Shown: in pieces, positions 1 through 25,567 of the stretch | How the letters are laid out: each line of letters opens with the position of its first letter | Position numbering within the stretch: position 1 is the first letter of the stretch | From: an uncultured Bifidobacterium sp. | Lineage (GTDB): Bacteria; Bacteroidota; Bacteroidia; AKYH767-A; OLB10 | Assembly: GCA_964584995.1 (NCBI GenBank) | Contig: CAZPCA010000006.1 | Span: 1-45,104, forward strand | Direction of reading: 5' to 3' | Length of the DNA: 45,104 bases | Made by a program: the position numbers and the translations under genes | The notes under the pieces: model-generated | What the model saw: the letters and a program-made list of their open reading frames with translations, nothing else | What the model was told of the DNA's origin: nothing | The model's database searches: none

Positions 1-303
1 TAAGATTTCCATGTTGTGTAATGATTTAGAGAATAATTTTTCTGGTTTATTGCTCTTTATTACGCCGAAACTTTACAAAGGTTTCCACCTTGAAATACTT
101 TTTATTCCATAAAACACCTTCGACAAAAAAAACCAACATATTAGAATTATAATACTGTTTATCTGATAGTTATGTCGCGCCAAAGGGCCTGTAGACTGCC
201 TTATCACAGCGGCTGTAATTGCATTAAAACCTTACAAAAGACAGAAATGCAACCTTCCCGTTCCTTCGTGCGTATCCGTGCCTGTAACTTTAATTCCGAA
301 GAG

Positions 304-3900: not shown

Positions 3901-6430
3901 AGATATGGTGATGGTAGCCAGTCCGGTAGCAGACTTCAACTCCCCTACATTAGCCGGTTGTTCACCCACGCAGATTTCCTTTGTGAATACGACTTCGGAT
4001 GCTAACACCTTCAGTTGGTCATTCGGAGACGGTGGCACATCCGGCAATACGCAACCTCAACATGTTTATTACATACCCGGTACTTACAGTGTCACGCTGA
4101 TAGCGACGAATAGTTTCGGATGCTCCGATACGATTACCAAGACCGATTACATTACCATACCGGGGACTTACACACGTTTCTCCATTTCCACCATCAGTGG
4201 ATGCCAGGGAGAGCTTATTCACTTCACGGACTCATCTATTAATGCAAGTAGCTGGGACTGGGATTTCGGTGATGGTTTACTGGATTCCAGCCAACATCCA
4301 TTACATGCTTATGCCGACACGGGTCTATATACCGTTACCCTGATAACCAGAGACTCCATCGGGTGTACATCCTCCTACACTTATCCTACAGCCATCCGCA
4401 TACATCCTCTGCCCATGGCAAGCGCCTCCGTTACGGATACCATCGGCTGTTCTGATTTTCAAACATCCTTTATCAATTTATCATTAGGAGCCTCAGCCTA
4501 CCTCTGGTATTTTGGTGATGGAGATACAAGTACGCAATCTTCTCCTTCCCATACATATTACCAAGCCGGCAATTACCAGGTCTCGTTAATAGCTACTACT
4601 TCATTTGGCTGTCTGGACACGTTTTCACTGGGCAATACCATTCAAGTCCTGCAAAGCCCTGTGGCAAACATCACTGCTACAGATTCAGTAGGCTGTGAAC
4701 CATCCTCCTTTCCATTGACATCCGGTTCAACGCAGCTACAGAGTCCTTCTTACATCTGGTACGATGGCCAGGGAAGTAGCACGACAGGTCCAACCGCCCA
4801 AGCTTATTACACGACACAGGGAACGTACATTGCATCGCTCGCAGTGATTAACGCCAATGGTTGCCGAGATTCTGTCAGCTTGCCGCTGACCGTACATCCG
4901 ACACCAATAGCCTCGGGCTTTACCGATGTACAATCCGGCTGTAACCCGTTGTACGTTCAATTCACACCCGCTAGCATGGGTGCCAATAGCCATGTATGGC
5001 ACTTTGGAAACGGAGACAGCTCAAGCAACCACAATCCCTCCTACACCTATACTGCTGCTGGAACGCTACAACCATGGGTGATTGCCAGTAACACCTTCGG
5101 CTGCATGGATTCTGCCATGCTATCACCGCTGGAAGTACTCTTATCACCTCAAGCATCCTTTACAACCAACCATACATTTGCCTGCTTCGGTGAACAAAGC
5201 AATTTCCAAAGCACCTCTATCGATACCTTATCCCCATCCTATACCTGGGACTTTGGTTTTCTCACATCAAATCTGGCACAGGCAACGGTACAGTGTTCCG
5301 TACCGGGAATCTTTGACGTCACCTTAATCACCACCAACAGCAATGGCTGTTCAGACACCTTGACTCAAAATGATTTCCTGGAAGTAGGCGACACCATCCC
5401 GCCGGCCGCCGATGACGTTGCAGCTGCGAGTGTTATTGGTGACCATGCTGTGCAACTAACATGGTTCAATAGTACAGAAACCGATCTATCCAGTTATCGG
5501 ATATATCGGCAAGTCAATCATTCAGGGCCATGGGTACTGATTCATACAGACTCGCTCCCTGCAAATGCCAGCAACCTGCCCATCAGTGTACACAGCGACA
5601 CTACGGTATCTACATTGAACAATGTATATACTTACAAATTGCAAACTATGGACCGATGCGGTTATGCATTGCCGCTTACGTTGCTGAAAGAACACACGAC
5701 GATGAATGTATCTGCCAGTGCCAACGGCTTGCAAATAAATGTTGAGTGGACTCCCTATGGGGGGTGCCAGCCCGTTAAATACAGCATTTACAGAACCGAG
5801 CGCCCATGGGGAAGTGCCGTAAAAATCGCAGAGACCGATTCCGCTACCACCACCTATCAGGACAACAGCATCACCTGTCCTTTTGAGTACGAATACAGGA
5901 TTGAAGCCGTGGGGTTATGCGGCACGGTTTTCAATGCCTACAGCGATACAGCTGCGGTGTGGCCTGATAATATTTTCGCACAGCAGATCTCGCCGTTGAT
6001 AAGAACAACGGTCGTCGACGACAAACACACTCTTACCGAATGGCAGACACCGACAACTTTGCCGGAAAGAATCTTAGCCTATGTCATTGAACGAAGCCAG
6101 GACGGCTTCAACTTTACGACACTGGATACTGTACCAACAGCCGTACTGAGCTATCTCGACGAGCAAGCAGATGTGCATACGGCCACATATACTTACCGTA
6201 TCAAGGCGGTCAATGACTGCATGTTGTCAGGACCGGCAGGGAACATCGGCAAGAACATTCTTCTGCAAGGCAGCAGGGAAGATTACCGCACGTACCTGCG
6301 TTGGAACAAATACGAACAATGGGACGCAGGAGTAGATCACTACACCATTGAGCAGCAAGACTACCAGGGCAAGTGGATTCCCGTTCGGGTGGTGAATGGC
6401 CAACAACTTTCAACAGAACTGGACGACTGA
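914..6430 (+). CDS. Giant secreted surface protein: signal peptide, 18 PKD modules, ~4 Fn3-like modules, no recognisable T9SS C-terminal domain
   Basis: Uninterrupted 1838-aa ORF with an N-terminal signal-like segment (LLNTLAVHFAAAQ). It carries 18 occurrences of the PKD signature W-x-FGDG/FGNG (for example YIWDFGDGSSS, WNWDFGDGNTS, YYWDFGDGNSS) at ~85-90 aa spacing. The tail has repeated (T/E)W...Y.I.R...Y.YR(I/L) modules. Confidence 0.9.
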   Translation: MLRNQICFLKLISFSLLNTLAVHFAAAQTPVASFTVNADSGCAPLLVTFNNTSTGAVGFLWNFGNGNQSTLSQPSASYGTPGSYTVTLIATAANGQRDTATSIITVLNNPVADFTVNSTSSCLVGNQFFFTNISSGGQSYIWDFGDGSSSTSINPAHSYAAPGNYTVKLIATNAFGCQHITIKNNLITVYPQPSPQLSITPNSSCDVNTVFQFTCGGQNIAGWSWYFGDGSNAGSQNPTHQYSNPGSYPVTLIASSIYGCTDTVTAANPVTIGTSLVPSFTASDSAGCAPFSLQFDCTVPNAVTWNWDFGDGNTSSSDLVNHTYTQPGQYTITLAVTTSNGCNGTVSMPAIISVDGPPVTNFAVVQDSGCAPFTAQFVNLSTGAATYDWQFGNSTSSSQQNPTATYSTGGLYSVTLTSTTQNGCQSTITRNQLIKVFEPRANFTASPQTGCPGMTTQFSHTGGSINIVGYLWSFGDGTTSNLPNPTHTFNSLGTYPITLIVTNVFGCRDTVIKPNYIQVISGTVPYTVPDTILVCDENSISFADPTIGSNTWNWNFGNGSGSTSPSASVLYSDPGIYTVSLQTSMPGGCSQTFNPFAIVKVLPYDPKPIDISVSAPCKPYVVDFSTQTPDVTAYYWDFGDGNSSTLANPSHTYQQAGTYAVVLTLLIGEGCSAHIYTTVTVGHSNPALASSTDICLSDSVLFSLSDTAAFVQATWVFGDGNSMNGLQTQHRYAQAGTYPVYVITTDTAGCRDTFNLYQPVIVNNPLPAFTVPSDGCINAPLLFQNQSLQADTYYWDFGDGNFSNEAVPEHTYTSTGTYTVILSVTKNNCTVSASLSNAITIHQPQSNFSFSVSGPCMPVSAQFNDLSSGSPIAWQWMFGNGGTSNQASPIYTYLTDPYDSIRLVVTDAFGCTDTSKQAPFPFYAAAAIVDDATGCMPHPAQFTDNSNGAIAWQWLFGDGQQSLLQHPGHQYAANGSYTVQLIATFPGGCVDTATYSDMVMVASPVADFNSPTLAGCSPTQISFVNTTSDANTFSWSFGDGGTSGNTQPQHVYYIPGTYSVTLIATNSFGCSDTITKTDYITIPGTYTRFSISTISGCQGELIHFTDSSINASSWDWDFGDGLLDSSQHPLHAYADTGLYTVTLITRDSIGCTSSYTYPTAIRIHPLPMASASVTDTIGCSDFQTSFINLSLGASAYLWYFGDGDTSTQSSPSHTYYQAGNYQVSLIATTSFGCLDTFSLGNTIQVLQSPVANITATDSVGCEPSSFPLTSGSTQLQSPSYIWYDGQGSSTTGPTAQAYYTTQGTYIASLAVINANGCRDSVSLPLTVHPTPIASGFTDVQSGCNPLYVQFTPASMGANSHVWHFGNGDSSSNHNPSYTYTAAGTLQPWVIASNTFGCMDSAMLSPLEVLLSPQASFTTNHTFACFGEQSNFQSTSIDTLSPSYTWDFGFLTSNLAQATVQCSVPGIFDVTLITTNSNGCSDTLTQNDFLEVGDTIPPAADDVAAASVIGDHAVQLTWFNSTETDLSSYRIYRQVNHSGPWVLIHTDSLPANASNLPISVHSDTTVSTLNNVYTYKLQTMDRCGYALPLTLLKEHTTMNVSASANGLQINVEWTPYGGCQPVKYSIYRTERPWGSAVKIAETDSATTTYQDNSITCPFEYEYRIEAVGLCGTVFNAYSDTAAVWPDNIFAQQISPLIRTTVVDDKHTLTEWQTPTTLPERILAYVIERSQDGFNFTTLDTVPTAVLSYLDEQADVHTATYTYRIKAVNDCMLSGPAGNIGKNILLQGSREDYRTYLRWNKYEQWDAGVDHYTIEQQDYQGKWIPVRVVNGQQLSTELDD
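998..5385 (+). repeat. Protein-level tandem array of 18 diverged PKD modules inside the 914..6430 CDS
   Basis: I counted 18 W.FG(D/N)G motifs by eye. The DNA copies are well diverged, so the duplications are old, not recent. Boundaries are approximate. Confidence 0.8.
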
Positions 6431-6463: not shown

Positions 6464-7450
6464 ATGGCTCGTCCATTAATGATTTTCTACATACTCGTAG
6501 CATATATACTGCTGCAATTCTCGTGGTGGGCTTATTTGCTTATTGATTTGAATCAAGAACTGGTTGAATCAAAGGCTGGCCTCAGCCAACTATTATCCCA
6601 AAACAGGTCTTCGTCCCCTTCAGGTATCGACTATTCAAGTGAATTGAAAAAACGCGTATGGATGGTTTTAGGAGAGGGAACCGTCTTTTTAGGATTATTG
6701 GTTTTCGGGATTTACAAACTCAGAGTGGCCTTTAAAAAAGAAGTTGCCTTGTCGAGGCAACAGAAGAACTTTTTGCTATCCATCACCCATGAGTTCAAAT
6801 CCCCCCTTGCCGCTGTCAAATTGAATCTACAAACATTGCAAAGAAGAGAGCTCGAAAAAGAACAACAAAACAACCTGCTCAAAAGATCACTCATTGAAAC
6901 AGAACGCATACACCTGCTTGTAGAAAACGCCCTCTTCGCCACACGGCTGGAGAGTGGTAATTTCCAGCTCTATTTCGAATCAATCGACCTTTCCCAATTG
7001 CTCGAAAAACTATTCAGAGAGTATGTGGAAAAACAGGACCATCAGCACTCCTTCGTGTCTGAAATAACCCCGAACATCCATATTCATGGAGACCAGCTCG
7101 CACTGAGCTCACTTGTTTACAATCTATTGGAAAATGCGGAGAAGTATTCTCCCGAAAACACAGGCATCACCCTGAGACTTAAAAGATCGGGGGCTGAAGC
7201 CCTCATCGAGGTGCAGGACGAAGGTCCCGGCATTCCCGAAAAAGAAAAATCAAAAATCTTTGAAAAATTCTATCGCCTGGGGAACGAAGACACCCGAAGG
7301 ACAAAGGGTACAGGATTGGGACTATTCATCGTACAGCAAGTTGTTGCACTTCACCGGGGAACCGTCCAGGTTACTGAGAACAGACCACAGGGAAGTATTT
7401 TTGAAATACGGATCAAATTGGAAAAACCAACGACCAAATTGAACAAGTAA
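6464..7450 (+). CDS. Sensor histidine kinase (HisKA + HATPase_c) with two N-terminal TM helices
   Basis: H-box SITHEFKSPLAAV, N-box NLLENAEKYS, G-boxes DEGPGI and GTGLGLFIV. Two hydrophobic helices are present in the first 90 aa. Confidence 0.9.
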   Translation: MARPLMIFYILVAYILLQFSWWAYLLIDLNQELVESKAGLSQLLSQNRSSSPSGIDYSSELKKRVWMVLGEGTVFLGLLVFGIYKLRVAFKKEVALSRQQKNFLLSITHEFKSPLAAVKLNLQTLQRRELEKEQQNNLLKRSLIETERIHLLVENALFATRLESGNFQLYFESIDLSQLLEKLFREYVEKQDHQHSFVSEITPNIHIHGDQLALSSLVYNLLENAEKYSPENTGITLRLKRSGAEALIEVQDEGPGIPEKEKSKIFEKFYRLGNEDTRRTKGTGLGLFIVQQVVALHRGTVQVTENRPQGSIFEIRIKLEKPTTKLNK

Positions 7451-7454
7451 GTTC

Positions 7455-7462
7455 TACCTTTG
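7455..7462 (+). promoter_or_regulatory. -7 box candidate (TACCTTTG)
   Basis: Exact TAnnTTTG match 19 nt upstream of the gpmI ATG at 7482. The flanks resemble the box at 6442. Confidence 0.45.
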
Positions 7463-7481
7463 CTGTTAAAGAGAATTGTTG

Positions 7482-8999
7482 ATGAGGAAAGTCGTATTGG
7501 TAATTCTGGACGGCTGGGGTTTAGCTCCGCCTTCTCCGGGCAATGCCATCACTGCTGCCAGCACACCATTTATGCGGTATGCCTGGGATACGTTCCCGCA
7601 TTCCACACTGATCACCTCCGGAGAAGATGTCGGGCTACCATCGGGACAAATGGGCAATTCAGAAGTCGGCCATTTGAATATCGGTGCTGGTCGTATCGTA
7701 TGGCAAGAGTTGGCCAACATCAACAAAGCAGTCAGGGAAAACACCCTTATTTCCGAACCGGTACTTCGGCAGGCCTTTGATACTGTCAAGCATCGAAATT
7801 GTAAATTGCATTTCATCGGACTGGTTTCAGACGGCGGAGTGCATTCCCACATAGAACATTTGAAACACCTTTGTACTCTTGCAAAGGGAGCCGGCATCAA
7901 CAATCAAGTATATGTGCACGCATTCACTGACGGGCGGGACACCGACCCCAACGGTGGCGAAGCCTATTTGGAAGACCTAGACCGGCATTTGCAACATACT
8001 GTTGGTAAAATAGCCACCGTAACGGGAAGGTATTATGCCATGGACAGGGACAAACGCTGGGAACGTGTCAAAATCGCATACGACGCCCTTGTCCATGGCC
8101 AAGGCCAAAAATGCGATTGGCGGTCCGGAATAAAATCCTCGTATAAAAGTGGAATAACCGACGAATTCATCCTACCTGTTATTTGTGACGAAGAAGGACT
8201 GATAGAGTCGGACGATGTAGTTATCTGTTTCAATTTCAGAACAGACCGCTGTAGGGAAATCACGCAGGTACTAACACAGGAAGACATGCCTGATCTGGGC
8301 ATGGTGCACTTACCCCTCTATTATGTGACAATGACACGGTACGATGACAGGTTTAAAAACGTACAGGTCATCTACGAAAAAGACAATTTAGGCATGACAC
8401 TCGGGGAGGTAATCGAGAAGAGGGGAAAGACTCAAATCCGCATTGCAGAAACAGAAAAATATCCGCATGTCACCTTTTTCTTCAGCGGCGGCAGAGAGCA
8501 GGAATTCAACGGCGAGAAGCGTCTGCTTATCCCTTCACCTAAAGTAGCCACCTATGATCTGAAGCCTGAAATGAGTGCTGTTGAATTGAAAAACACCATC
8601 GTGCCGGAGCTGTTAAAGGCAGAAACGGATTTCGTATGCCTCAATTTCGCCAATGCGGATATGGTAGGACATACCGGTGTCTTTTCCGCTGCAGTAAAAG
8701 CTGTCGAAACGGTGGACACCTGCCTGAAAGAAATCGTAGATGCAGGTACGGCGAATGGTTATACCTTTCTGATCATCGCAGACCACGGCAATGCCGATAC
8801 AATGATCAATCCGGACGGCAGTCCCAATACTGCACATACTACCCATCCTGTTCCTTGTATCTTAGTGACATCAGAAGGCAAGTGGAAGCTGAACGACGGC
8901 AGACTGGCGGATATAGCGCCAACTATCCTGGCACTCATGGACATACCCGTTCCGGAGCAAATGACAGGAAGAAGCCTGTTAAAAGGAATAAATCACTAA
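7482..8999 (+). CDS. gpmI: 2,3-bisphosphoglycerate-independent phosphoglycerate mutase
   Basis: N-terminus VVLVILDGWG...GNSEVGHLNIGAGR, with ADHGNA near the C-terminus. The size of 505 aa is typical. The first ATG lies 6 nt inside the track ORF, which starts at a TTG. Confidence 0.95.
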   Translation: MRKVVLVILDGWGLAPPSPGNAITAASTPFMRYAWDTFPHSTLITSGEDVGLPSGQMGNSEVGHLNIGAGRIVWQELANINKAVRENTLISEPVLRQAFDTVKHRNCKLHFIGLVSDGGVHSHIEHLKHLCTLAKGAGINNQVYVHAFTDGRDTDPNGGEAYLEDLDRHLQHTVGKIATVTGRYYAMDRDKRWERVKIAYDALVHGQGQKCDWRSGIKSSYKSGITDEFILPVICDEEGLIESDDVVICFNFRTDRCREITQVLTQEDMPDLGMVHLPLYYVTMTRYDDRFKNVQVIYEKDNLGMTLGEVIEKRGKTQIRIAETEKYPHVTFFFSGGREQEFNGEKRLLIPSPKVATYDLKPEMSAVELKNTIVPELLKAETDFVCLNFANADMVGHTGVFSAAVKAVETVDTCLKEIVDAGTANGYTFLIIADHGNADTMINPDGSPNTAHTTHPVPCILVTSEGKWKLNDGRLADIAPTILALMDIPVPEQMTGRSLLKGINH

Positions 9000-9005
9000 T
9001 CATTC

Positions 9006-9905
9006 ATGAACCGTACACTTCTTTTTTTTCTCATTCTATTAACCATAGGGCAGCAAAGCCAGAGCCAATCCCGCTGGGGATTATTTGCAGGAGGAGGCAC
9101 CACATGGTATTACGGGGACATGAATGACCGATTGATCACACACGAGAACCTCTTAGGCTATTATTGGAATGCGGGCCTCTTATACAGGGTTTCTCCACGC
9201 TTTCACATCAGTGGCAGGTACGCTGCAGGCAAGGTCGTAGGAGCTGACTCATTGGCGATACAGGATTTCAATAAAAAACGTGATTTGCATTTCCGCAATG
9301 ATATCTGGCAAACGTCGCTTCACCTGGAGTATCGCCTACTTGGTTACAGAAATGGCCGTCCGAGAAAAGTGACTCCTTATCTCATCGGCGGCTTTGCTTA
9401 TTTCCATTATAACCCCGTAGCTATTCTGAACGGAGAAGAGGTGGAATTACAGCCTTTGGGGACCGAGGGACAATACATCGAAGGTGATGGGAATCCTGAA
9501 CCGTATACCTTGTATGACTTTTCGATTCCTGCAGGACTGGGAATAGAATTCAGGCTATCGAATGCTTTCTCGGCTAGGATAGAGGTGATCAATCACTTTT
9601 CCTTCACTGACTATTTTGACGATCTGAGTTCCGATTATGCGGACTCACTGAAACTATCCTCTACACCGAATGGAGCGCTGGCAGTTGCCATGGCCAACAA
9701 CATCGCAAGCGGTTATCCCAGAGAAGGGTTTGGCAGAGGCGACCCTAAGGATAACGATACTTATGTATTTGCCGGAATTTCGCTCATGTGGACACCGGGA
9801 GCGGGCCAGGACGATGGCAACAGAGAAGGTCAAGTCAAAGGCCGCAACAATGGCAGTAGTAGTAGAAAGAAAAAGAAAAAAGCGAATTGTCCGGCATTCG
9901 ACTAG
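9006..9905 (+). CDS. Outer-membrane beta-barrel-like protein (possibly DUF6089-type) with a lysine-rich C-terminal tail
   Basis: Signal peptide (LLFFLILLTIGQQSQS) and alternating aromatic/glycine strand-like segments. The tail is SSSRKKKKKANCPAFD. The family assignment is from memory only. Confidence 0.65.
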   Translation: MNRTLLFFLILLTIGQQSQSQSRWGLFAGGGTTWYYGDMNDRLITHENLLGYYWNAGLLYRVSPRFHISGRYAAGKVVGADSLAIQDFNKKRDLHFRNDIWQTSLHLEYRLLGYRNGRPRKVTPYLIGGFAYFHYNPVAILNGEEVELQPLGTEGQYIEGDGNPEPYTLYDFSIPAGLGIEFRLSNAFSARIEVINHFSFTDYFDDLSSDYADSLKLSSTPNGALAVAMANNIASGYPREGFGRGDPKDNDTYVFAGISLMWTPGAGQDDGNREGQVKGRNNGSSSRKKKKKANCPAFD

Positions 9906-9947: not shown

Positions 9948-12900
9948 GTGGAGTTAGCAGAAGTATTGTCCAAAGCACGTCAACAAAATGCGCTTGAGCA
10001 GTTGACGGCCCTTTTACCGAGCTGTAAGAAGTCGGTAATTCACCTGAACGGATTCAGCGGATCCTCCCATGCTTTGTATATTTCTGCTTTCCTGGAAGGC
10101 ATGCCTCAACCCGCGCTTTTCATTTTACCGGACCGGGAGGAAGCAGCCTATTTTCAAAACGACCTGGAGAACATACTGGGCACTGAGAGGGCCCTGCTGT
10201 ATCCCTCATCGTATAAAAAACCTTACCAGCTGGAGCAACCCGATAGCAGCCATGTGCTTCAGAGAGCAGAAGTGCTGACGCGGATCAATAAAAACCCCAC
10301 ACAGTTCATTGTCGTCACCTATCCTGAAGCCGCCCATGAACGGGTCGTGACCAAGAAGACACTTGAAAGAAATACGATGGAAATCCGTATGGGGGAAAAA
10401 TTAGGACTGGATTTTCTGTTTGAGTTCCTGTCTGAGAACTCCTTCGTGCGAAGTGATTTTGTTTACGAACCCGGACAATTCTCTATCCGAGGTGGAATCG
10501 TCGATATCTATTCCTTTGCCAATGATCTCCCCTACCGGATCGAATTGTATGAAGACCGGGTGGAATCCATCCGCAGTTTTGACCCCTCCACGCAACTCAG
10601 CGAAAAAAACCTCGCATTTGTCACCATAATCCCGAATATACAAAGTGGCATGGTCAAAGAGGAGCATGAATCATTTTTCGATTTCTTACCTACGTCCGCC
10701 ACTGTTTATCTCAAAGACGCACCGGTGATCTTTCAAACAATAGAAACTTCGTTGACAAAGCTGACGGAGCTTTATGGAAACACTGTCGCAATCGACGATG
10801 AACAAACTGTGCGCAAAGTGGAAGACCTGTTTGACGATACAGCAGCAGTCAAAGACAAGCTCTCTGCATTCAACCGGATAGAATTCGGCACCAAGCACTA
10901 TTTCGAAAGCCATCATTCCTATACTTTCCATACAAGGCCACAGCCGCACTTCAACAAGAACTTCAACCTCCTCCTGGAAGACCTATATAAAAACCAGCAA
11001 GCGGGTTTTACCAACCTCTTGTTCTCGGAATCCGCCAAGCAAACAGAGCGGATTTATTCCATCTTTGAAGACATACCGCGGCCAGCTGCTTTCAAAGGAA
11101 AAACGCTTCAGTTCCACAGTATACTAACCGCATTGCATCAGGGCTTTTCAGATGAGGATTTGAAAATCACCTGCTACACCGACCATCAGATCTTCGACCG
11201 CTACCACCGTTTCCGGCTCAAGAAAAACTACAGCAAGAGCGAAGCCATCACTTTAAAAGAGCTCTATAGTCTGAAGCCGGGTGATTTCATCACGCATATC
11301 GACCATGGCATCGGCCGTTTTGCAGGTCTTGAGACACTGGATGTGAACGGTAAGCCGCAGGAAGCGATCCGTCTTGTTTACAAAGACAACGACATCTTGT
11401 ATATCAGCATACACTCCCTTCACCGGATTGCCAGGTATACCAGTAAAGACGGGGCCGCTCCGAGTCTGAATAAACTGGGCAGCTCTGCTTGGGCTACGCT
11501 CAAACAAAAAACAAAAAAGAAGGTCAAAGACATCGCCAAAGACCTCATTGCACTTTACGCTAAAAGGCGAGCGCAAAAGGGGGTTGCCTTCAGTAAAGAT
11601 ACTTACCTGCAAACAGAATTGGAAGCCTCCTTCATGTACGAAGACACTCCGGACCAGCTGAAATCCACCCGCGATGTGAAAAAGGACATGGAGAAAGATT
11701 ATCCTATGGACAGGCTGATATGTGGAGATGTGGGATTCGGAAAAACCGAAATTGCCATCCGTGCGGCATTCAAGGCCGTATGCGATGGCAAACAAGTAGC
11801 CATTCTAGTCCCCACCACTATACTCGCCCTGCAACATTTCCGGACTTTCTCGGAGCGCCTGAAAGAGTTTCCCTGTACGGTGGATTACCTCAACAGATTC
11901 AAAAGCACTGCTCAGCAATCAGCCACACTAAAAAAACTGGCAGAAGGCAAAATCGACATCATCATCGGCACCCACCGCATACTAAGCAAAGACATTCAGT
12001 TCAGGGATCTCGGCTTGATGATTATTGACGAGGAACAAAAATTCGGAGTGGCCTCGAAGGAAAAACTCAAATCGATGCGGGTGAACGTTGACACCTTGAC
12101 CCTTACAGCGACTCCTATACCCCGCACCCTGCAATTTTCCCTGATGGGTGCTCGTGACCTTAGCGTAATAAACACCCCTCCGCCCAACAGATATCCCGTT
12201 ACCACAGAAGTACACGTATTCAATGAAAAGTTGATCAAAGAGGCAATAGACTATGAAGTTTCGCGGGGAGGCCAGGTGTTTTTCATTCACAACAGAGTGC
12301 AGGACATACACGAAGTGGCTGGCATGATTCAGAGGCTCTGTCCGGAGGTAAGCATCCTTGTTGGACATGGCCAGATGGACGGTGACAAGCTGGAAGAAGT
12401 ACTTGTCAAATTCATTGAGGGAGATGCAGACGTACTCATTGCTACTACGATAATCGAATCCGGCCTGGACATCAGCAATGCGAATACGATGATCATCAAT
12501 AATGCGCATTATTTCGGGCTAAGCGATCTCCATCAGATGCGGGGGCGGGTAGGACGATCCAACAAAAAAGCCTTCTGTTATCTTTTGGCACCACCGCTAA
12601 GCGTAATCACTCCTGAAGCCAGGCAAAGACTCAAGGCTATTGAGGAACACGCCGAGTTGGGTAGTGGCTTCCATGTGGCTATGCGCGACTTAGATATCCG
12701 TGGCGCAGGCAATCTGTTGGGCGGAGAGCAAAGCGGTTTCATTTCGGAGATAGGCTTTGAAATGTATCACAAGATCCTCGACGAAGCCATCCACGAACTG
12801 AAGGAGAGTGAATTCAGTGATCTGTTTCCGGAGGAGAAAGATGTTTCCTATGTGAGAGATTGCCAGATCGACACCGACATGGAAATGCGTATACCGGACA

Positions 12901-14481: not shown

Positions 14482-14509
14482 ATCCCCCTTTTCGGGGATT
14501 TTCTTTTTT
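14482..14509 (+). terminator. Weak intrinsic-terminator-like hairpin
   Basis: ATCCCC-cttttc-GGGGAT followed by TTTCTTTTTT. Confidence 0.35.
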
Positions 14510-14579: not shown

Positions 14580-15293
14580 ATGAAAAAGATGATTTCTACC
14601 GGATTGTTAAGCCTTGCTTTCTTTCTGAACAGCATGGCCGACGACAGAACGAGTGATTTGCGGATCCGCTGCTATGACAACCGTACGGTGCTGGTCAGCT
14701 TGAATCACGAACAATACACAGAGCGCGGAAATACCGTTTGGTTCCGTGGCATCTACCCCGGCCGCCATTATCTGCAGGTCTGGGGCTTCCGCCACCACTC
14801 TTTCGGAGTGCATCAGGGTCGCGTTATGTTGTACAGTGGATTCATCGATATTCCATCCAGTATGGAAATAAAGGCCACTATCACCCGAAACGGGTTCTTC
14901 AAAATTGCCCAGATGACTCCACTTCTGACACCCATGGTGGCACCTCCGGCTTGCGTTGCATACCCTGTTGGACCTGCGCATTGCGGAACCCCCTCTTATC
15001 AGGGGTTTGAGGAGACTGAATTCAACGCACTGCTTGCCACACTTGAAAATCAGCATTTCGAAAGCACCAAGCTAACAATTGCCCGGCAAGCCATTCGACA
15101 AAAAGGAGCAATCATGACGCATCAGGTAATTGAAATAATGCGTTTGATGCGTTTCGAAAGCAGCAAACTGGATTTGGCAAAATTCGCCTTCGTGTTCACA
15201 CTTGACAACAACCAATACTACAGGGTGTTCAATGAATTCCAGTTTGACAGCAGTGTCCGCGAACTCAGTGCATTTATGGACCGACCGGTTTAA
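14580..15293 (+). CDS. Secreted DUF4476-like protein
   Basis: Signal peptide MKKMISTGLLSLAFFLNSMA. The C-terminal region F..L...L....FES.KL......I......T..Q...I....F.FES.KL..AKF resembles the DUF4476 repeat as I recall it. Confidence 0.75.
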   Translation: MKKMISTGLLSLAFFLNSMADDRTSDLRIRCYDNRTVLVSLNHEQYTERGNTVWFRGIYPGRHYLQVWGFRHHSFGVHQGRVMLYSGFIDIPSSMEIKATITRNGFFKIAQMTPLLTPMVAPPACVAYPVGPAHCGTPSYQGFEETEFNALLATLENQHFESTKLTIARQAIRQKGAIMTHQVIEIMRLMRFESSKLDLAKFAFVFTLDNNQYYRVFNEFQFDSSVRELSAFMDRPV

Positions 15294-15312
15294 TTTGGAG
15301 AAAACTGTAACC

Positions 15313-15562
15313 TGGCCCCGTAAGGTCACGTTCAACAAGCATCCGGCCCCGTAAGGCCCATGTAATTCCAGCAGACCCCGTAAGGTCTTCTTCAACAAGC
15401 ATCCGGCCCCGTAAGGCCCATGTAATTCCAGCAGACCCCGTAAGGTCTCCTTCAACAAGCATCCGGCCCCGTAAGGTCCATGTAATCCCCACTTACCCCG
15501 TAAGGTAAGATTTCAGACCCCGTAAGGTCTCTTTCAGTAAAATTCCGGCCCCGTAAGGTCGG
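15313..15562 (+). repeat. Tandem hairpin array: three 60-nt units (15313-15492) plus three degenerate units, with 9 copies of CCCCGTAAGG
   Basis: The decamer starts at 15316, 15347, 15376, 15407, 15436, 15467, 15496, 15518 and 15549. Each copy sits in a short inverted repeat. Units 1 vs 2 and 2 vs 3 are each 55/60 identical by hand count. Confidence 0.9.
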
Positions 15563-15613
15563 TGAAACGCACCTCGCAAGGGGCGTTTAATCAGCCAACA
15601 CTTTCGATTTGTA

Positions 15614-15644
15614 CTCCCGGACCCGTAAGTCCGGGAGTTTTTTA
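15614..15644 (+). terminator. Strong intrinsic terminator
   Basis: CTCCCGGAC-ccgtaa-GTCCGGGAG (9-bp stem) followed by TTTTTTATT. The loop is the same as in the upstream array. Confidence 0.85.
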
Positions 15645-15762
15645 TTGTGTAAAGTGCATCTTTCGAGATTGTCGAATTAAGTCATTGAATTGTAAGCTTA
15701 TTAAAACTTGAGCATCTGCTTGCCCGATGAAGAAAAAATATACGTTTTACATAGAGAATACG

Positions 15763-15770
15763 TAATTTTG
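15763..15770 (+). promoter_or_regulatory. -7 box candidate (TAATTTTG)
   Basis: Exact TAnnTTTG match 30 nt upstream of ATG 15801. This argues against the longer ORF start at 15708. Confidence 0.45.
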
Positions 15771-15800
15771 CGCCTTCGAAAGCGAATACCTTTATCGATT

Positions 15801-17645
15801 ATGGCTGAATTAAAACAAGAGGTCCTTGAAAGAGTGATCATCAAATTTGCCGGTGATTCCGGCGACGGTATGCAACTTACCGGTACACAATTTACCAATA
15901 CGGCAGCATTGCTGGGCAATGATCTCAGTACTTTCCCTGATTTTCCTGCCGAAATACGTGCCCCGCAGGGAACGATTCCAGGCGTTTCAGGTTATCAGTT
16001 ACACTTCGGATCCGTGAATATTTTCACCCCGGGGGATGCCTGCGATGTGCTTGTAGCGATGAATGCAGCGGCGCTGAAAGCCAACCTGCGTCATCTCCGC
16101 AAAGCCGGCACCATCATTGCCAATACCGACGGTTTCGACCCCAAAAACCTTCGTCTTGCCAATTACCCTGACGGCGTTAACCCGCTGCAGGATGGATCGC
16201 TCGAAGGGTACCGTCTGGTCACCATGGATGTCACCAAAATGACCCGGGCAGCTCTAACCGAATCCGGTCTTGGCATAAAAGAAATAGACCGTGCCAAAAA
16301 CATGTTTGTGCTAGGGTTCCTCTATTGGATGTATAACAGGGACATGGTCCACACGGAAAACTTTTTGAAGGAAAAATTCAGCAAGAAGCCGGACATCCTT
16401 GAGGCGAATCTCAAAGTCCTGCGTTCCGGCTACAACTTTAGCGATACCAGCGAAACGCTTGCTACCCGCTATACGGTTAATCCAGCACCGACGCCTCCCG
16501 GAACCTACCGGAACATCATGGGCAACCAGGCCACTTCACTGGGACTTATCGCGGCTTCTCAGAAATGCGGGTTAGACCTTTTCCTTGGCTCCTATCCTAT
16601 CACACCGGCCTCCGACATCCTGCATGAATTGTCCAAATACAAGCATTTCGGCGTAAGAACCTATCAGGCAGAAGACGAAATCGCTGCGATTTGTGCAGTC
16701 ATCGGGGCGGCTTTCGGAGGCAAACTTGCCATCACTACCTCATCCGGTCCTGGTATCGCCCTCAAAGGAGAAGCCATGGGTTTGGGCATCATGCTCGAGT
16801 TACCCATGGTCATCATCAACGTACAGCGTGGTGGCCCGTCTACCGGTTTACCCACCAAGACCGAACAAAGTGACCTCTTCCAGGCCATGTATGGTCGTAA
16901 CGGAGAAGCACCAATGCCGGTGATTGCCGCCAAATCTCCTGCGGACTGCTTCGAGGCTGCATTTGAAGCCTGCAGAATTGCCATTGAATTCATGACTCCG
17001 GTAATGCTGCTGACCGACGGATACATCGCCAATGGTTCAGAGCCCTGGAGATTCCCACAATCTTCCGACCTGAAAGACTTCAAAGCCAGTTTCGTCACCG
17101 AAAAGAACGGAGACAAATTCCTTCCCTACAAGCGCGACGAGAAACTTTCACGCCCCTGGGCCATACCTGGCACGAAGGGACTGGAGCACCGTATTGGCGG
17201 ACTCGAAAAACAGCACGAAACGGGCAATATCAGCTACGATCCGGAGAACCACGAGTTCATGGTACACATGCGTGCTGCAAAAGTGGCGAAGGTGGCCGAA
17301 CACGTGCCTGCTCAGACTATCGACAATGGCAGTGAGAAAGGGAAGCTGCTTGTCATTGGCTGGGGATCCACCTATGGCGCTATCAAAGCAGCCGTGAAAG
17401 AAGCACGTGCGAAAGGTCTCGATGTGAGCCATGCGCATATCCGCCACATCAATCCTTTCCCCACGAATCTGGGAGAAATCATCTATGGTTTTGAAAAAGT
17501 GTTGGTGCCGGAGATGAACACCGGTCAGCTGAACTCCATTCTCAGAGACAAATTCATGGTGCCTTCCATTGGTCTTAACAAAATCAAAGGAATGCCCTTC
17601 TCCACTTCAGAGATTCTGGAAAAAATCGAAGAGATCTGTAAATAA
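15801..17645 (+). CDS. korA: 2-oxoglutarate/2-oxoacid:ferredoxin oxidoreductase, alpha subunit
   Basis: The N-terminus VIIKFAGDSGDGMQLTG is typical of KorA. It is 614 aa and is followed immediately by the TPP-binding beta subunit. Confidence 0.9.
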   Translation: MAELKQEVLERVIIKFAGDSGDGMQLTGTQFTNTAALLGNDLSTFPDFPAEIRAPQGTIPGVSGYQLHFGSVNIFTPGDACDVLVAMNAAALKANLRHLRKAGTIIANTDGFDPKNLRLANYPDGVNPLQDGSLEGYRLVTMDVTKMTRAALTESGLGIKEIDRAKNMFVLGFLYWMYNRDMVHTENFLKEKFSKKPDILEANLKVLRSGYNFSDTSETLATRYTVNPAPTPPGTYRNIMGNQATSLGLIAASQKCGLDLFLGSYPITPASDILHELSKYKHFGVRTYQAEDEIAAICAVIGAAFGGKLAITTSSGPGIALKGEAMGLGIMLELPMVIINVQRGGPSTGLPTKTEQSDLFQAMYGRNGEAPMPVIAAKSPADCFEAAFEACRIAIEFMTPVMLLTDGYIANGSEPWRFPQSSDLKDFKASFVTEKNGDKFLPYKRDEKLSRPWAIPGTKGLEHRIGGLEKQHETGNISYDPENHEFMVHMRAAKVAKVAEHVPAQTIDNGSEKGKLLVIGWGSTYGAIKAAVKEARAKGLDVSHAHIRHINPFPTNLGEIIYGFEKVLVPEMNTGQLNSILRDKFMVPSIGLNKIKGMPFSTSEILEKIEEICK

Positions 17646-24490: not shown

Positions 24491-25567
24491 ATGGCAAAAG
24501 TCACCTTCAACAACAAAAACAGTCCCTTTTTTGATTCATTGCGCGAGAAGATCGACGTCTATTTCAGGGAACATCAAATCAAACCTACAGGCAACTATCA
24601 ACTGTATACGAAAACCATCATTTTGGTGAGTGTAGCCATTCTTGTCTACAGTTGTCTGGTCTTTCTTCAGCTACCAACCTGGTTGTCACTGAGCCTTTGT
24701 AGCATGATGGGACTCACATTTGCAAGTATCGGGTTCAACGTAATGCACGATGGAGCACACGGATCGTACTCCACCAACAAACGTATCAATGCGCTGATGT
24801 CCTATTCCCTTAACCTGATGGGGGGCTCCAGCTTCATGTGGAAAATCAAACACAATCATGTACATCACTCTTTCACGAATATCGACGGGGTTGATGACGA
24901 CATTGACATTCAGCCCTTCATGCGAGTAAACGAACAACAGAAGCTCTATTGGTTTCATCGTTTTCAGCATGTTTACTGGGTGCTGCTTTACGGAGCAACT
25001 TATTTCATGTGGATTTTCTGGATGGATTTCCATAAGTACTTCACACACCGTATAGGACCTACACCCATCCGCAAAATGAAGTTTTCCGAGCACGTAGGAT
25101 TTTGGGTAACCAAAATCGGTTATCTGGGATTGTTCATCGGATTACCTGTTTACTTCAAAGGTTGGTTGGCGACGGTTATTGGTTATGGCGTGATTCTGTT
25201 CGTGACAGGATTGGTAATTGCGGTAGTGTTCCAACTTGCACACGTAGTAGAGGACACCAAGTTCCCGCAGCCCGATGCCAGCACTCAGAAAATTGAGGAA
25301 GAGTGGGCGCTGCATCAGCTGCAAACCACTGCCAATTTCGCAACCAAGAATAAAATCGTCAGTTGGTTCATGGGCGGACTCAATTTTCAGGTAGAACATC
25401 ATCTCTTTCCTAAAATTTCCCACATTCACTATCCGGCCATCAGCAAGCTGGTGCGTGAAACCTGTGAGGAGTTCAACGTTCGTTACATCGAATACCCTAC
25501 CGTAATTTCAGCAGTGCGGGCTCATATCCGGCACTTGAAAAACCTGGGAAGGCCTTCATTTTCGTGA
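24491..25567 (+). CDS. Membrane fatty-acid desaturase, front-end (DesD/delta-6-like) type, with no cytochrome b5 domain
   Basis: Three His boxes: HDGAH, HNHVHH and QVEHH (Gln replaces the first His of box 3). Four or more TM segments. Length 358 aa. Confidence 0.85.
   Translation: MAKVTFNNKNSPFFDSLREKIDVYFREHQIKPTGNYQLYTKTIILVSVAILVYSCLVFLQLPTWLSLSLCSMMGLTFASIGFNVMHDGAHGSYSTNKRINALMSYSLNLMGGSSFMWKIKHNHVHHSFTNIDGVDDDIDIQPFMRVNEQQKLYWFHRFQHVYWVLLYGATYFMWIFWMDFHKYFTHRIGPTPIRKMKFSEHVGFWVTKIGYLGLFIGLPVYFKGWLATVIGYGVILFVTGLVIAVVFQLAHVVEDTKFPQPDASTQKIEEEWALHQLQTTANFATKNKIVSWFMGGLNFQVEHHLFPKISHIHYPAISKLVRETCEEFNVRYIEYPTVISAVRAHIRHLKNLGRPSFS

Follow-up and report, generated by a model that had tools for sequence, protein, structure and literature searches.

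Sponge small RNAs (sRNAs) such as CsrB and CsrC, and RsmX, RsmY and RsmZ, consist of many hairpins that display one short loop motif on variable stems; they stand alone as genes, end in a terminator, and vary in copy number from lineage to lineage. Here we describe hairpin arrays of the same general design, starting from one of 11 hairpins at positions 15313-15644 (+ strand) of a 45,104-nt stretch of DNA, hereafter the window (contig CAZPCA010000006.1 of assembly GCA_964584995.1), from an uncultured organism deposited as Bifidobacterium sp. and placed in Bacteroidota by its GTDB lineage. Comparative sequence evidence indicates that the window array is a real structured non-coding RNA element under strong selection for its loop and adjacent stem features, and that it belongs to an apparently undescribed RNA family occurring in scattered Bacteroidota. 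The Csr/Rsm sponges are the closest analogue for its probable mode of action, but they carry GGA or ANGGA loops, whereas 10 of the 11 window hairpins, including the last, which is the terminator hairpin, have a CCGUAA hexaloop and the remaining one has TCGCAA. The hosts also differ, the arrays being found in Bacteroidota; there is no match to the CsrB/Rsm families of Rfam, and no csrA gene lies in the window.

Several other described RNAs share part of this design. CrcZ and CrcY of Pseudomonas and GlmY of Enterobacteria are decoy sRNAs with −24/−12 promoters under an enhancer-binding protein, and many of our arrays similarly lie behind a TGGCAY-N6-TGM box and have A-rich linkers (48% A), as in CrcZ; however, there is no homology in sequence or structure, and neither the window nor the low-GC lineages have the sigma-54-type box. 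The CcsR or 'cuckoo' RNAs of alpha-proteobacteria have tandem hairpin modules with an invariant loop, a variable module number and growth by duplication, and some of these and other multi-hairpin sRNAs lie directly downstream of a small open reading frame (ORF), as some of the arrays do; unlike the arrays, which offer a 6-nt loop with a conserved adjacent stem, CcsR-type RNAs pair with mRNAs through long anti-Shine-Dalgarno-like seeds (CCUCCUCCC). NrsZ, with three 60-nt stem-loop repeats and NtrC/sigma-54 control, is grouped with the multi-hairpin, conserved-loop sRNAs, and the UCCC-loop sRNAs of Staphylococcus are another multi-hairpin type with conserved C-rich loops. The targets of ANTAR proteins, including the EutX/Rli55 decoy, likewise contain tandem short hexaloop hairpins recognized through loop positions. 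ANTAR loops are said, from the work of Ramesh et al. 2012, to need A1 and G4 and to occur in a hairpin pair that overlaps a terminator. The arrays, in contrast, have a C1 C2 G3 U4 A5 A6 loop (C1 and U4 in 139/139 pooled hairpins), 3-20 copies, and a separate terminator. A decoy sRNA for an ANTAR-protein system is reported in PMC3369931.

The window array follows a DUF4476 gene and consists of the following elements, all on the + strand:

15313..15644, +, whole element, an 11-hairpin array ending in an intrinsic terminator (sequence, motif counts, RNAfold, covariance model)
15316..15506, +, tandem 60-nt units of two hairpins each, 3.2 copies, 92% matches (Tandem Repeats Finder, TRF)
15313..15328, +, hairpin 1, TGGCC-CCGTAA-GGTCA, 5 bp with one G-U pair
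15345..15358, +, hairpin 2, GGCC-CCGTAA-GGCC
15373..15388, +, hairpin 3, AGACC-CCGTAA-GGTCT
15405..15418, +, hairpin 4, GGCC-CCGTAA-GGCC
15433..15448, +, hairpin 5, AGACC-CCGTAA-GGTCT
15465..15478, +, hairpin 6, GGCC-CCGTAA-GGTC, one G-U pair
15492..15509, +, hairpin 7, CTTACC-CCGTAA-GGTAAG
15515..15530, +, hairpin 8, AGACC-CCGTAA-GGTCT
15545..15562, +, hairpin 9, CCGGCC-CCGTAA-GGTCGG, one G-U pair
15565..15588, +, hairpin 10, variant loop, AAACGC-ACC-TCGCAA-GGG-GCGTTT (sequence, RNAfold)
15613..15644, +, intrinsic terminator with the array loop, ACTCCCGGAC-CCGTAA-GTCCGGGAGT, then a T-run (terminator scan)

A preliminary description of the locus had reported the 11 stem-loops and their arms, nine + strand copies of the decamer CCCCGTAAGG with their exact starts, 60-nt repeat units, the TCGCAA hairpin and a strong terminator, in a block without a credible ORF, and had proposed folding the region; all of these observations hold, and RNAfold recovers every hairpin on the + strand (z = −2.97; 0/100 shuffles fold as well), compared with z = −1.63 for the − strand. 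Chance would give 0.05 copies of the decamer, and none of 100 shuffles reaches nine; CCCGTAAG occurs 10 times, with the tenth copy in the terminator. All 10 CCGTAA copies within 15313-15638 are surrounded by inverted arms of 4-10 bp, and the remaining 29 CCGTAA/TTACGG hexamers of the window have arms of 0-2 bp, with the sole exception of one at 24993(−). The terminator stem (15613-15638) has 10 bp, seven of them G-C, and is followed by TTTTTATT, as in Rho-independent terminators, and the only reading frames that cross the block are generated by the repeats themselves. The tandem 60-nt units are a recent duplication, and hairpin 10 is probably a unit that has decayed or diverged.

A covariance model of the hairpin unit finds 10 matches in the array (E 0.0004-0.03) and no others in the window at E < 1 apart from one antisense site within a coding region. 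That site is a lone GTTGCT-CCGTAA-AGCAGC hairpin at 24981-25000(−), within a fatty-acid desaturase ORF (24491-25567), which scores 18.5 bits (E 0.03) and which we take as chance. The number of units in the window may be polymorphic or collapsed in assembly, because a same-species contig from JGI (L006, 1084-1460) has four 60-nt units where the window has three, the array of a 50.9 kb scaffold (L001) is interrupted by a run of N (10807-10906), and seven short-read contigs (L002-L005, L007-L009) end 57-67 nt past the DUF4476 stop codon.

Relatives of the DUF4476 protein fall into 11 clusters at E ≤ 1e-10, and the gene order SET-DUF4476-gap-korA-korB is kept in L010, L011, L083 and L084, where DUF4476 is 47-49% identical to that of the window. 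The gap in all four is filled with 13-20 + strand CCGTAA-loop hairpins whose arms differ from those of the window, and because protein homology led to these loci, the search did not presuppose the motif. Across the close relatives as a whole, hairpin numbers at this site range over 8-20. Flanking proteins are closely related among the syntenic loci, with identities to the window of 86-91% for KorA, 88-92% for KorB, 73-87% for MFD and 72-78% for SET, and yet the arms and linkers of the arrays cannot be aligned between the window and its close relatives, only the loops persisting. With flanking proteins 72-92% identical, the arrays must therefore have been almost wholly rewritten over a short evolutionary distance while their loops were kept. 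An alignment of six syntenic arrays contains 65 predicted pairs, of which 27 show compensatory double changes. Relatives thus carry arrays at the same syntenic place, and their free arms and fixed loop strongly support the earlier proposal that it is RNA structure in the + transcript that is under selection, and that the pattern is more than simple DNA slippage.

The more distant DUF4476 homologues at L082 and L085 (33% and 24% identity) have neither korAB synteny nor an array. We also considered replacement of a whole DUF4476-array-korA block and rejected it, since KorA is so well conserved and only DUF4476 is strongly diverged. The secreted-looking DUF4476 protein (47-49% identity between the window and L010, L011, L083, L084, L101, L104 and L106, compared with 72-92% for the flanking proteins) evolves far faster than its neighbors, and the adjoining array does likewise. 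In L010, small ORFs, one with a weak PIN_3 match, lie between the array terminator and korA (11843-12458), an insertion that looks toxin-antitoxin-like from its sequence.

Arrays of the same hairpin type also occur elsewhere. A naive pattern of three CCCGTAAG copies, run on viral contigs, matched 67 loci, none of them more than an ordinary tandem or coding repeat, in which the 'arms' are identical and no true stem forms. A replacement pattern demanding neighboring hairpins of opposite arm polarity (R..Y then Y..R) matches 0/67 of these, and in a scan of one genome per species, covering 185,579 species, it identified 21 loci: 17 in Bacteroidota metagenome-assembled genomes (MAGs), one of them labeled only 'uncultured bacterium', a Thermus array of clustered regularly interspaced short palindromic repeats (CRISPR; L088), and three chance matches. 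All 17 carriers have a single array locus, which is the syntenic one in five and in unrelated contexts in 12 (genome GC 0.37-0.70), and a metagenome scan added ~11 further arrays. L089 and L106 come from a Lake Mendota series and L101 from activated sludge. The implicit view of the preliminary description, that the RNA is specific to this locus, is wrong. Five contigs with GC of ~0.6 (L110, L116, L118, L121 and L124), of which at least two come from human-gut metagenomes, have in common one identical TGTAGC-CCGTAA-GCTACG hairpin, adjoined by more CCCGTAAG copies without stems; this appears to be a different repeat.

Outside the arrays, the 202 kb of DNA flanking 20 array-bearing loci has CCGTAA about as often as chance predicts and contains only three hairpins with arms of at least 4 bp, compared with 158 inside the arrays, all 158 on one strand. 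With so few hairpins in the flanks and none added by the covariance model in the window, the motif is not a dispersed repeat resembling repetitive extragenic palindromes (REP) or bacterial interspersed mosaic elements (BIME), as far as the examined sequence allows, and that option of the preliminary description is not supported; each of the 17 array-bearing genomes shows one locus. Like the arrays, REP/BIME elements form clusters of short intergenic palindromes able to stabilize upstream mRNA, but REPs are dispersed by the hundreds in both orientations with conserved stems, whereas the arrays occupy one locus on one strand and conserve the loop on variable stems. ToxI of type III toxin-antitoxin systems and CRISPR arrays are also tandem structured RNA repeats that end in a terminator, but they have near-identical full repeats and adjacent toxin or cas genes, whereas the arrays keep 8 nt per unit and have short A-rich linkers. 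In the arrays the arms differ from unit to unit, and the true CRISPR match in Thermus is quite different; there are no cas genes in the window or among the array neighbors, the gene downstream of the window array is korA, and the arrays of its relatives are non-tandem.

To define the unit, we pooled 139 distinct hairpins from ~20 arrays. All six loop positions are invariant (139/139), the closing pair is C-G in 132 (95%), the second stem pair is free, and the third is a purine-pyrimidine pair with the purine on the 5' side (G-C, A-U or G-U) in 134 (96%), giving the consensus 5'-R-N-C[CCGUAA]G-N'-Y-3'. Stem positions are paired in 90% of cells, compared with 54% in shuffles and 21-43% with slid partners, and the covariation score is 0.886 versus 0.215 (0/500 shuffles). 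CUGUAA is the sole recurrent loop variant on good stems (L108, L112, L126, L094 and L098). It occurs in about half of the hairpins in L108 (5882-6171) and L112 (1-290; oriented coordinates), with other substitutions rare, and U at loop position 2 therefore seems to be tolerated. CCGCAA loops, a U-to-C change, occur in L011 and L095, and these isolated loops, together with CCAUAA and the UCGCAA loop of the window, look like decaying copies. The linkers contain 48% A and 16% G, and loop-to-loop spacing has a median of 31 nt (interquartile range 28-35). Tandem units are present in several arrays, at the following lengths and copy numbers:

Window, tandem unit of 60 nt, 3.2 copies
L010, tandem unit of 68 nt, 9.4 copies
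L095, tandem unit of 111 nt, 3.0 copies
L117, tandem unit of 95 nt, 2.5 copies

Older arrays (L011, L083 and L084) have no tandem identity and keep every loop.

Many of the arrays lie behind promoter-like boxes. Sigma-54 promoters have a TGGCAC-N5-TTGC-like box that lies 12-24 nt ahead of the transcript start and keeps GG-N10-GC spacing, and in several lineages TGGCAY-N6-TGM boxes with GG-N10-GC/GA spacing lie 27-100 nt upstream of the array (L010, L011/L083/L089, L084/L101/L106, L104, L099, L091/L092, L087 and L094). In the syntenic clade the box is TGGCACGAATGTTGAA, TGGCACGGAAGTTGAA or TGGCACGAATATTGAA, 27-46 nt before the first hairpin, with TGGCATAGTAATTGCA ~100 nt upstream in L010; L011, L084 and L104 have TGGCACG-N4-TTGAA, in which the −12 element is GA in place of GC. 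Unrelated clades have TGGCACGATATCTGCA (L099), TGGCACGCGGGATGCA (L091/L092), TGGCACATGAGATGCC (L087) and CGGCATGTGGAATGCT (L094), and every box listed keeps the GG-N10-G(C/A) spacing of −24/−12 promoters; by our own estimate a chance match within 200 nt has a probability of ~1e-3 per locus. The L087, L091, L092 and L094 loci contain two or three tandem small genes, each with a box and three hairpins, the third of which is a long terminator with a CCGUAA loop.

Low-GC clades are without a sigma-54 box and have a perfect Bacteroidetes −7 box, often TATCTTTGATTCATCA, located ~14-30 nt before the first hairpin in L119, L095 and L117 and ~50-120 nt before it in L105, L126 and L096. Terminators with a CCGUAA loop also end the arrays of L010, L104, L087/L091/L094, L114 and L117, and array loci with both a box and a terminator look like sRNA genes from these sequence signals. 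The arrangement at two loci is of the 3' untranslated region (UTR) type, with three hairpins right after the stop codon in L114 and one right after an Hsp20 gene in L099. Three loci (L095, ~5905-6000; L115, ~255-350; L119, ~9395-9495; oriented coordinates) have a conserved 3' domain in common, which follows the last hairpin and runs in the order GAGAAAGC..GCTTTC, AGACATAYYATCC, GGATTYGAACGA and terminator.

Transcription of the window array itself is less clear-cut, and two features at its 5' side are relevant:

14580..15293, +, DUF4476 gene, signal-peptide-like N-terminus (gene context)
15290..15297, +, TTAATTTG, a one-mismatch Bacteroidetes −7 box (TAnnTTTG) overlapping the DUF4476 stop (sequence)

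The DUF4476 stop codon (15291-15293) and the start of the first hairpin are 20 nt apart, and read-through from DUF4476 into the array is possible because no terminator separates them. The Bacteroidetes −7 consensus, known from Bacteroides promoters, is TAnnTTTG; the mismatch in TTAATTTG falls on the conserved A, and the −33 TTTG is absent at the usual distance. The near −7 box of the preliminary description could be a weak promoter belonging to the array. The sigma-70 scan used on the window is not built for this promoter type. The flank TTTGG|AGAAAACTGTAACCTGGCC resembles that of L011 minus the core of the box. The window RNA may thus be either a DUF4476 read-through product or a transcript starting at ~15300-15306. 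The suggestion of a stand-alone sRNA is the best fit for the family, with its upstream boxes and downstream terminators; for the window, which has no sigma-54 box, it and the 3' UTR of the DUF4476 mRNA are both candidates.

A terminator-like hairpin (ATCCCC-CTTTTC-GGGGAT plus a T-run, 14482-14509) lies between the SET gene and DUF4476, so that transcription of DUF4476, and perhaps also of the array, would begin anew after 14510. A perfect −7 box, TAATTTTG (15763-15770), lies in the korA leader, 31 nt before the ATG at 15801. At the same spot, L011 (11459-11472) and L084 (~1446-1459) have CCGTAAATTCGCAC, which contains the loop hexamer, probably by coincidence; we did not count this CCGTAA as an array member, since it forms no hairpin and coincides with the korA −7 box region.

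The explanation that we tentatively put first, while holding it somewhat short of probable, is that the array is a multivalent decoy or scaffold RNA that binds a loop- and stem-specific factor, most probably an RNA-binding protein. The RNAs of the family are built of 3 to ~20 short hairpins with a common hexaloop and A-rich linkers, closed by an intrinsic terminator. They grow by tandem duplication of 2-4-hairpin units, after which arms and linkers drift with compensatory changes while selection preserves the loop, its closing C-G pair and a third pair of purine-pyrimidine polarity. Each RNA would bind many copies of one factor, either serving as a scaffold or acting as a decoy that titrates the factor off other RNAs. 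The RNA of many lineages looks like a gene of its own, transcribed from a sigma-54-type (−24/−12) or housekeeping Bacteroidetes −7 promoter; in the window it would probably be the 3' part of the DUF4476 transcript, or start from TTAATTTG, and end at the 15613-15644 terminator.

Several observations weigh against this explanation. Carriers make up only 17/185,579 species genomes and all are MAGs, so that the family is patchy, and the arrays found by pattern have at least three loops fixed by construction. No conserved neighbor gene stands out as a partner candidate across the array loci, where the neighbors differ by clade: they include GNAT, DUF520/YajQ and deaminase genes, Hsp20 and sulfatase, a fatty-acid desaturase and YchF, as well as a response regulator, a DegT aminotransferase (three related loci), HxlR and an AAA+ ATPase. 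No CCGUAA hairpins are seen in the 5' regions of genes in ~200 kb of flanking DNA, and any mRNA targets of the factor would therefore lack the same high-affinity site nearby. In the window, the −7 box has its one mismatch and there is no sigma-54-type box before the array, the best candidate, TGGAGAAAACTGTAAC, retaining only the GG. In a high-GC group (L086, L090 and L102) the hairpins fall within a probable ftsL-like ORF, leaving their status ambiguous. Finally, at pairs 2-5, G-U outnumbers A-C by 36 to 18, an excess of only ~2:1 for the + strand, and the strand assignment therefore rests mainly on terminators and promoter boxes.

Three side observations bear on the same subjects. The high-GC hairpins lie in Bacteroidota MAGs of GC 0.68-0.70 (L086, ~7150-7780; L090, 2394-3020; L102, 4903-5532; oriented coordinates), with 4-5 CCGTAA hairpins on 6-9 bp stems within the basic N-terminal part, with PRKA repeats, of an ORF between rsmH and ftsI that is probably FtsL-like; they may be RNA sites within a coding region, or may simply result from the peptide repeat. 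The L095, L115, L119 and L126 loci are near a DegT-family aminotransferase gene. A minus-strand reading, with a UUACGG loop that contains UACG, is closed by U-G and recalls a tRNA-Arg/TadA-like site, was rejected: the T-runs of the terminators, the promoter boxes and the surplus of G-U relative to A-C all favor the + strand. Each minus-strand hairpin folds slightly tighter.

The main rival, which we regard as rather unlikely, is a base-pairing regulatory RNA in which each CCGUAA loop is a seed for kissing or pairing with UUACGG-containing targets. Identical single-stranded loops repeated on a variable scaffold would suit this, as would the tandem paralogous modules of L091, L087 and L094 with their own promoters and terminators, and the unpaired AGACATAYYATCC conserved in the 3' stretch of L095, L115 and L119 could be a classical base-pairing seed. 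Six nucleotides, however, make a short seed, pairing of the loop with a target leaves the conserved closing C-G and the third-pair polarity unexplained, and no UUACGG-bearing target is evident, though none was searched for genome-wide. Conservation of stem features beside the loop, together with the large number of copies and their regular spacing, fits protein recognition better than base pairing.

It is less likely still that the array is simply a multi-hairpin 3' UTR that stabilizes or insulates the DUF4476 mRNA, as a 3'-exonuclease barrier or terminator backup with no function in trans. The short distance from the DUF4476 stop to the first hairpin, with no intervening terminator, agrees with this, and so do L114 and L099, in which three hairpins and one hairpin, the latter after an Hsp20 gene, directly follow coding genes. 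A barrier needs stable stems, however, and not an invariant hexaloop across genomes of GC 0.35-0.70; most arrays lie behind their own promoter-like box, far from the upstream ORF, and 10 or more hairpins exceed what protection needs.

We consider it very unlikely that the hairpins mimic anticodon arms, a special case of a decoy in which the array would occupy a tRNA-modifying enzyme, a synthetase or an anticodon nuclease. The C-Y-G-U-A-A loop resembles what we take to be anticodon-loop positions 32-37 of tRNA-Tyr (GUA) or 33-38 of tRNA-Thr (CGU), it ends in UAA, and its only recurrent tolerated variant is CUGUAA, but the loop has 6 nt and not 7, position '33' is mostly C in place of the universal U, and the arrays are not linked to any tRNA gene or tRNA enzyme. 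A DNA-level repeat, whether a REP/BIME-like or miniature inverted-repeat transposable element, an iteron array or minisatellite slippage, is the least credible of these alternatives and highly improbable: the window array does owe part of its length to a recent tandem duplication of 60 nt, present in different copy numbers in different assemblies, and other arrays have tandem units too, but there is one locus per genome in a single orientation with no dispersed copies, the old arrays of L011, L083 and L084 keep all loops and show compensatory arm changes without tandem identity, an asymmetric 8-nt core with variable palindromic arms is unlike duplex-DNA binding sites, and the tandem repeats that the naive three-copy pattern found in viral contigs have identical 'arms' and no real stems.

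The preliminary description had said that an Rfam match would mean that the RNA was already described. Searches of Rfam 15 gave no matches for the window, with only sub-threshold, terminator-like noise at 15200-15800 at E ≤ 10, and none for the arrays of 13 other loci, where the sole hits were three tRNAs; the searchable literature contains no match to CCGUAA, CCCGUAAG or CCCGTAAG hairpin arrays. The window also contains no rpoN, enhancer-binding protein gene or obvious RNA-binding protein gene.

Little is understood of post-transcriptional control in Bacteroidota, and a 2026 preprint reports Bacteroides to be without CsrA and Hfq. By analogy with the sponge and decoy systems, it is conceivable, if doubtful, that some Bacteroidota run a Csr/Rsm- or Crc-like global post-transcriptional circuit in which sigma-54- or sigma-A-driven sRNAs of 3-20 C[CCGUAA]G hairpins titrate a putative hairpin-specific RNA-binding regulator. 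If such a circuit exists, the arrays provide a handle for finding both the regulator and its regulon. Should the array be merely a 3'-end stabilizer, it would still be a new and easily recognized annotation feature, and it is already a known cause of assembly breaks at the DUF4476 locus. The arrays also illustrate how hairpin loops alone can be under strong purifying selection in an RNA whose other parts turn over between species, even where neighboring proteins remain ~90% identical. Their signature is clear, with a fixed 8-nt loop plus closing pair, freely evolving stems, up to ~20 copies, and often a sigma-54-type promoter, and it may serve as bait for a new RNA-binding regulator and a new sigma-54 regulon.

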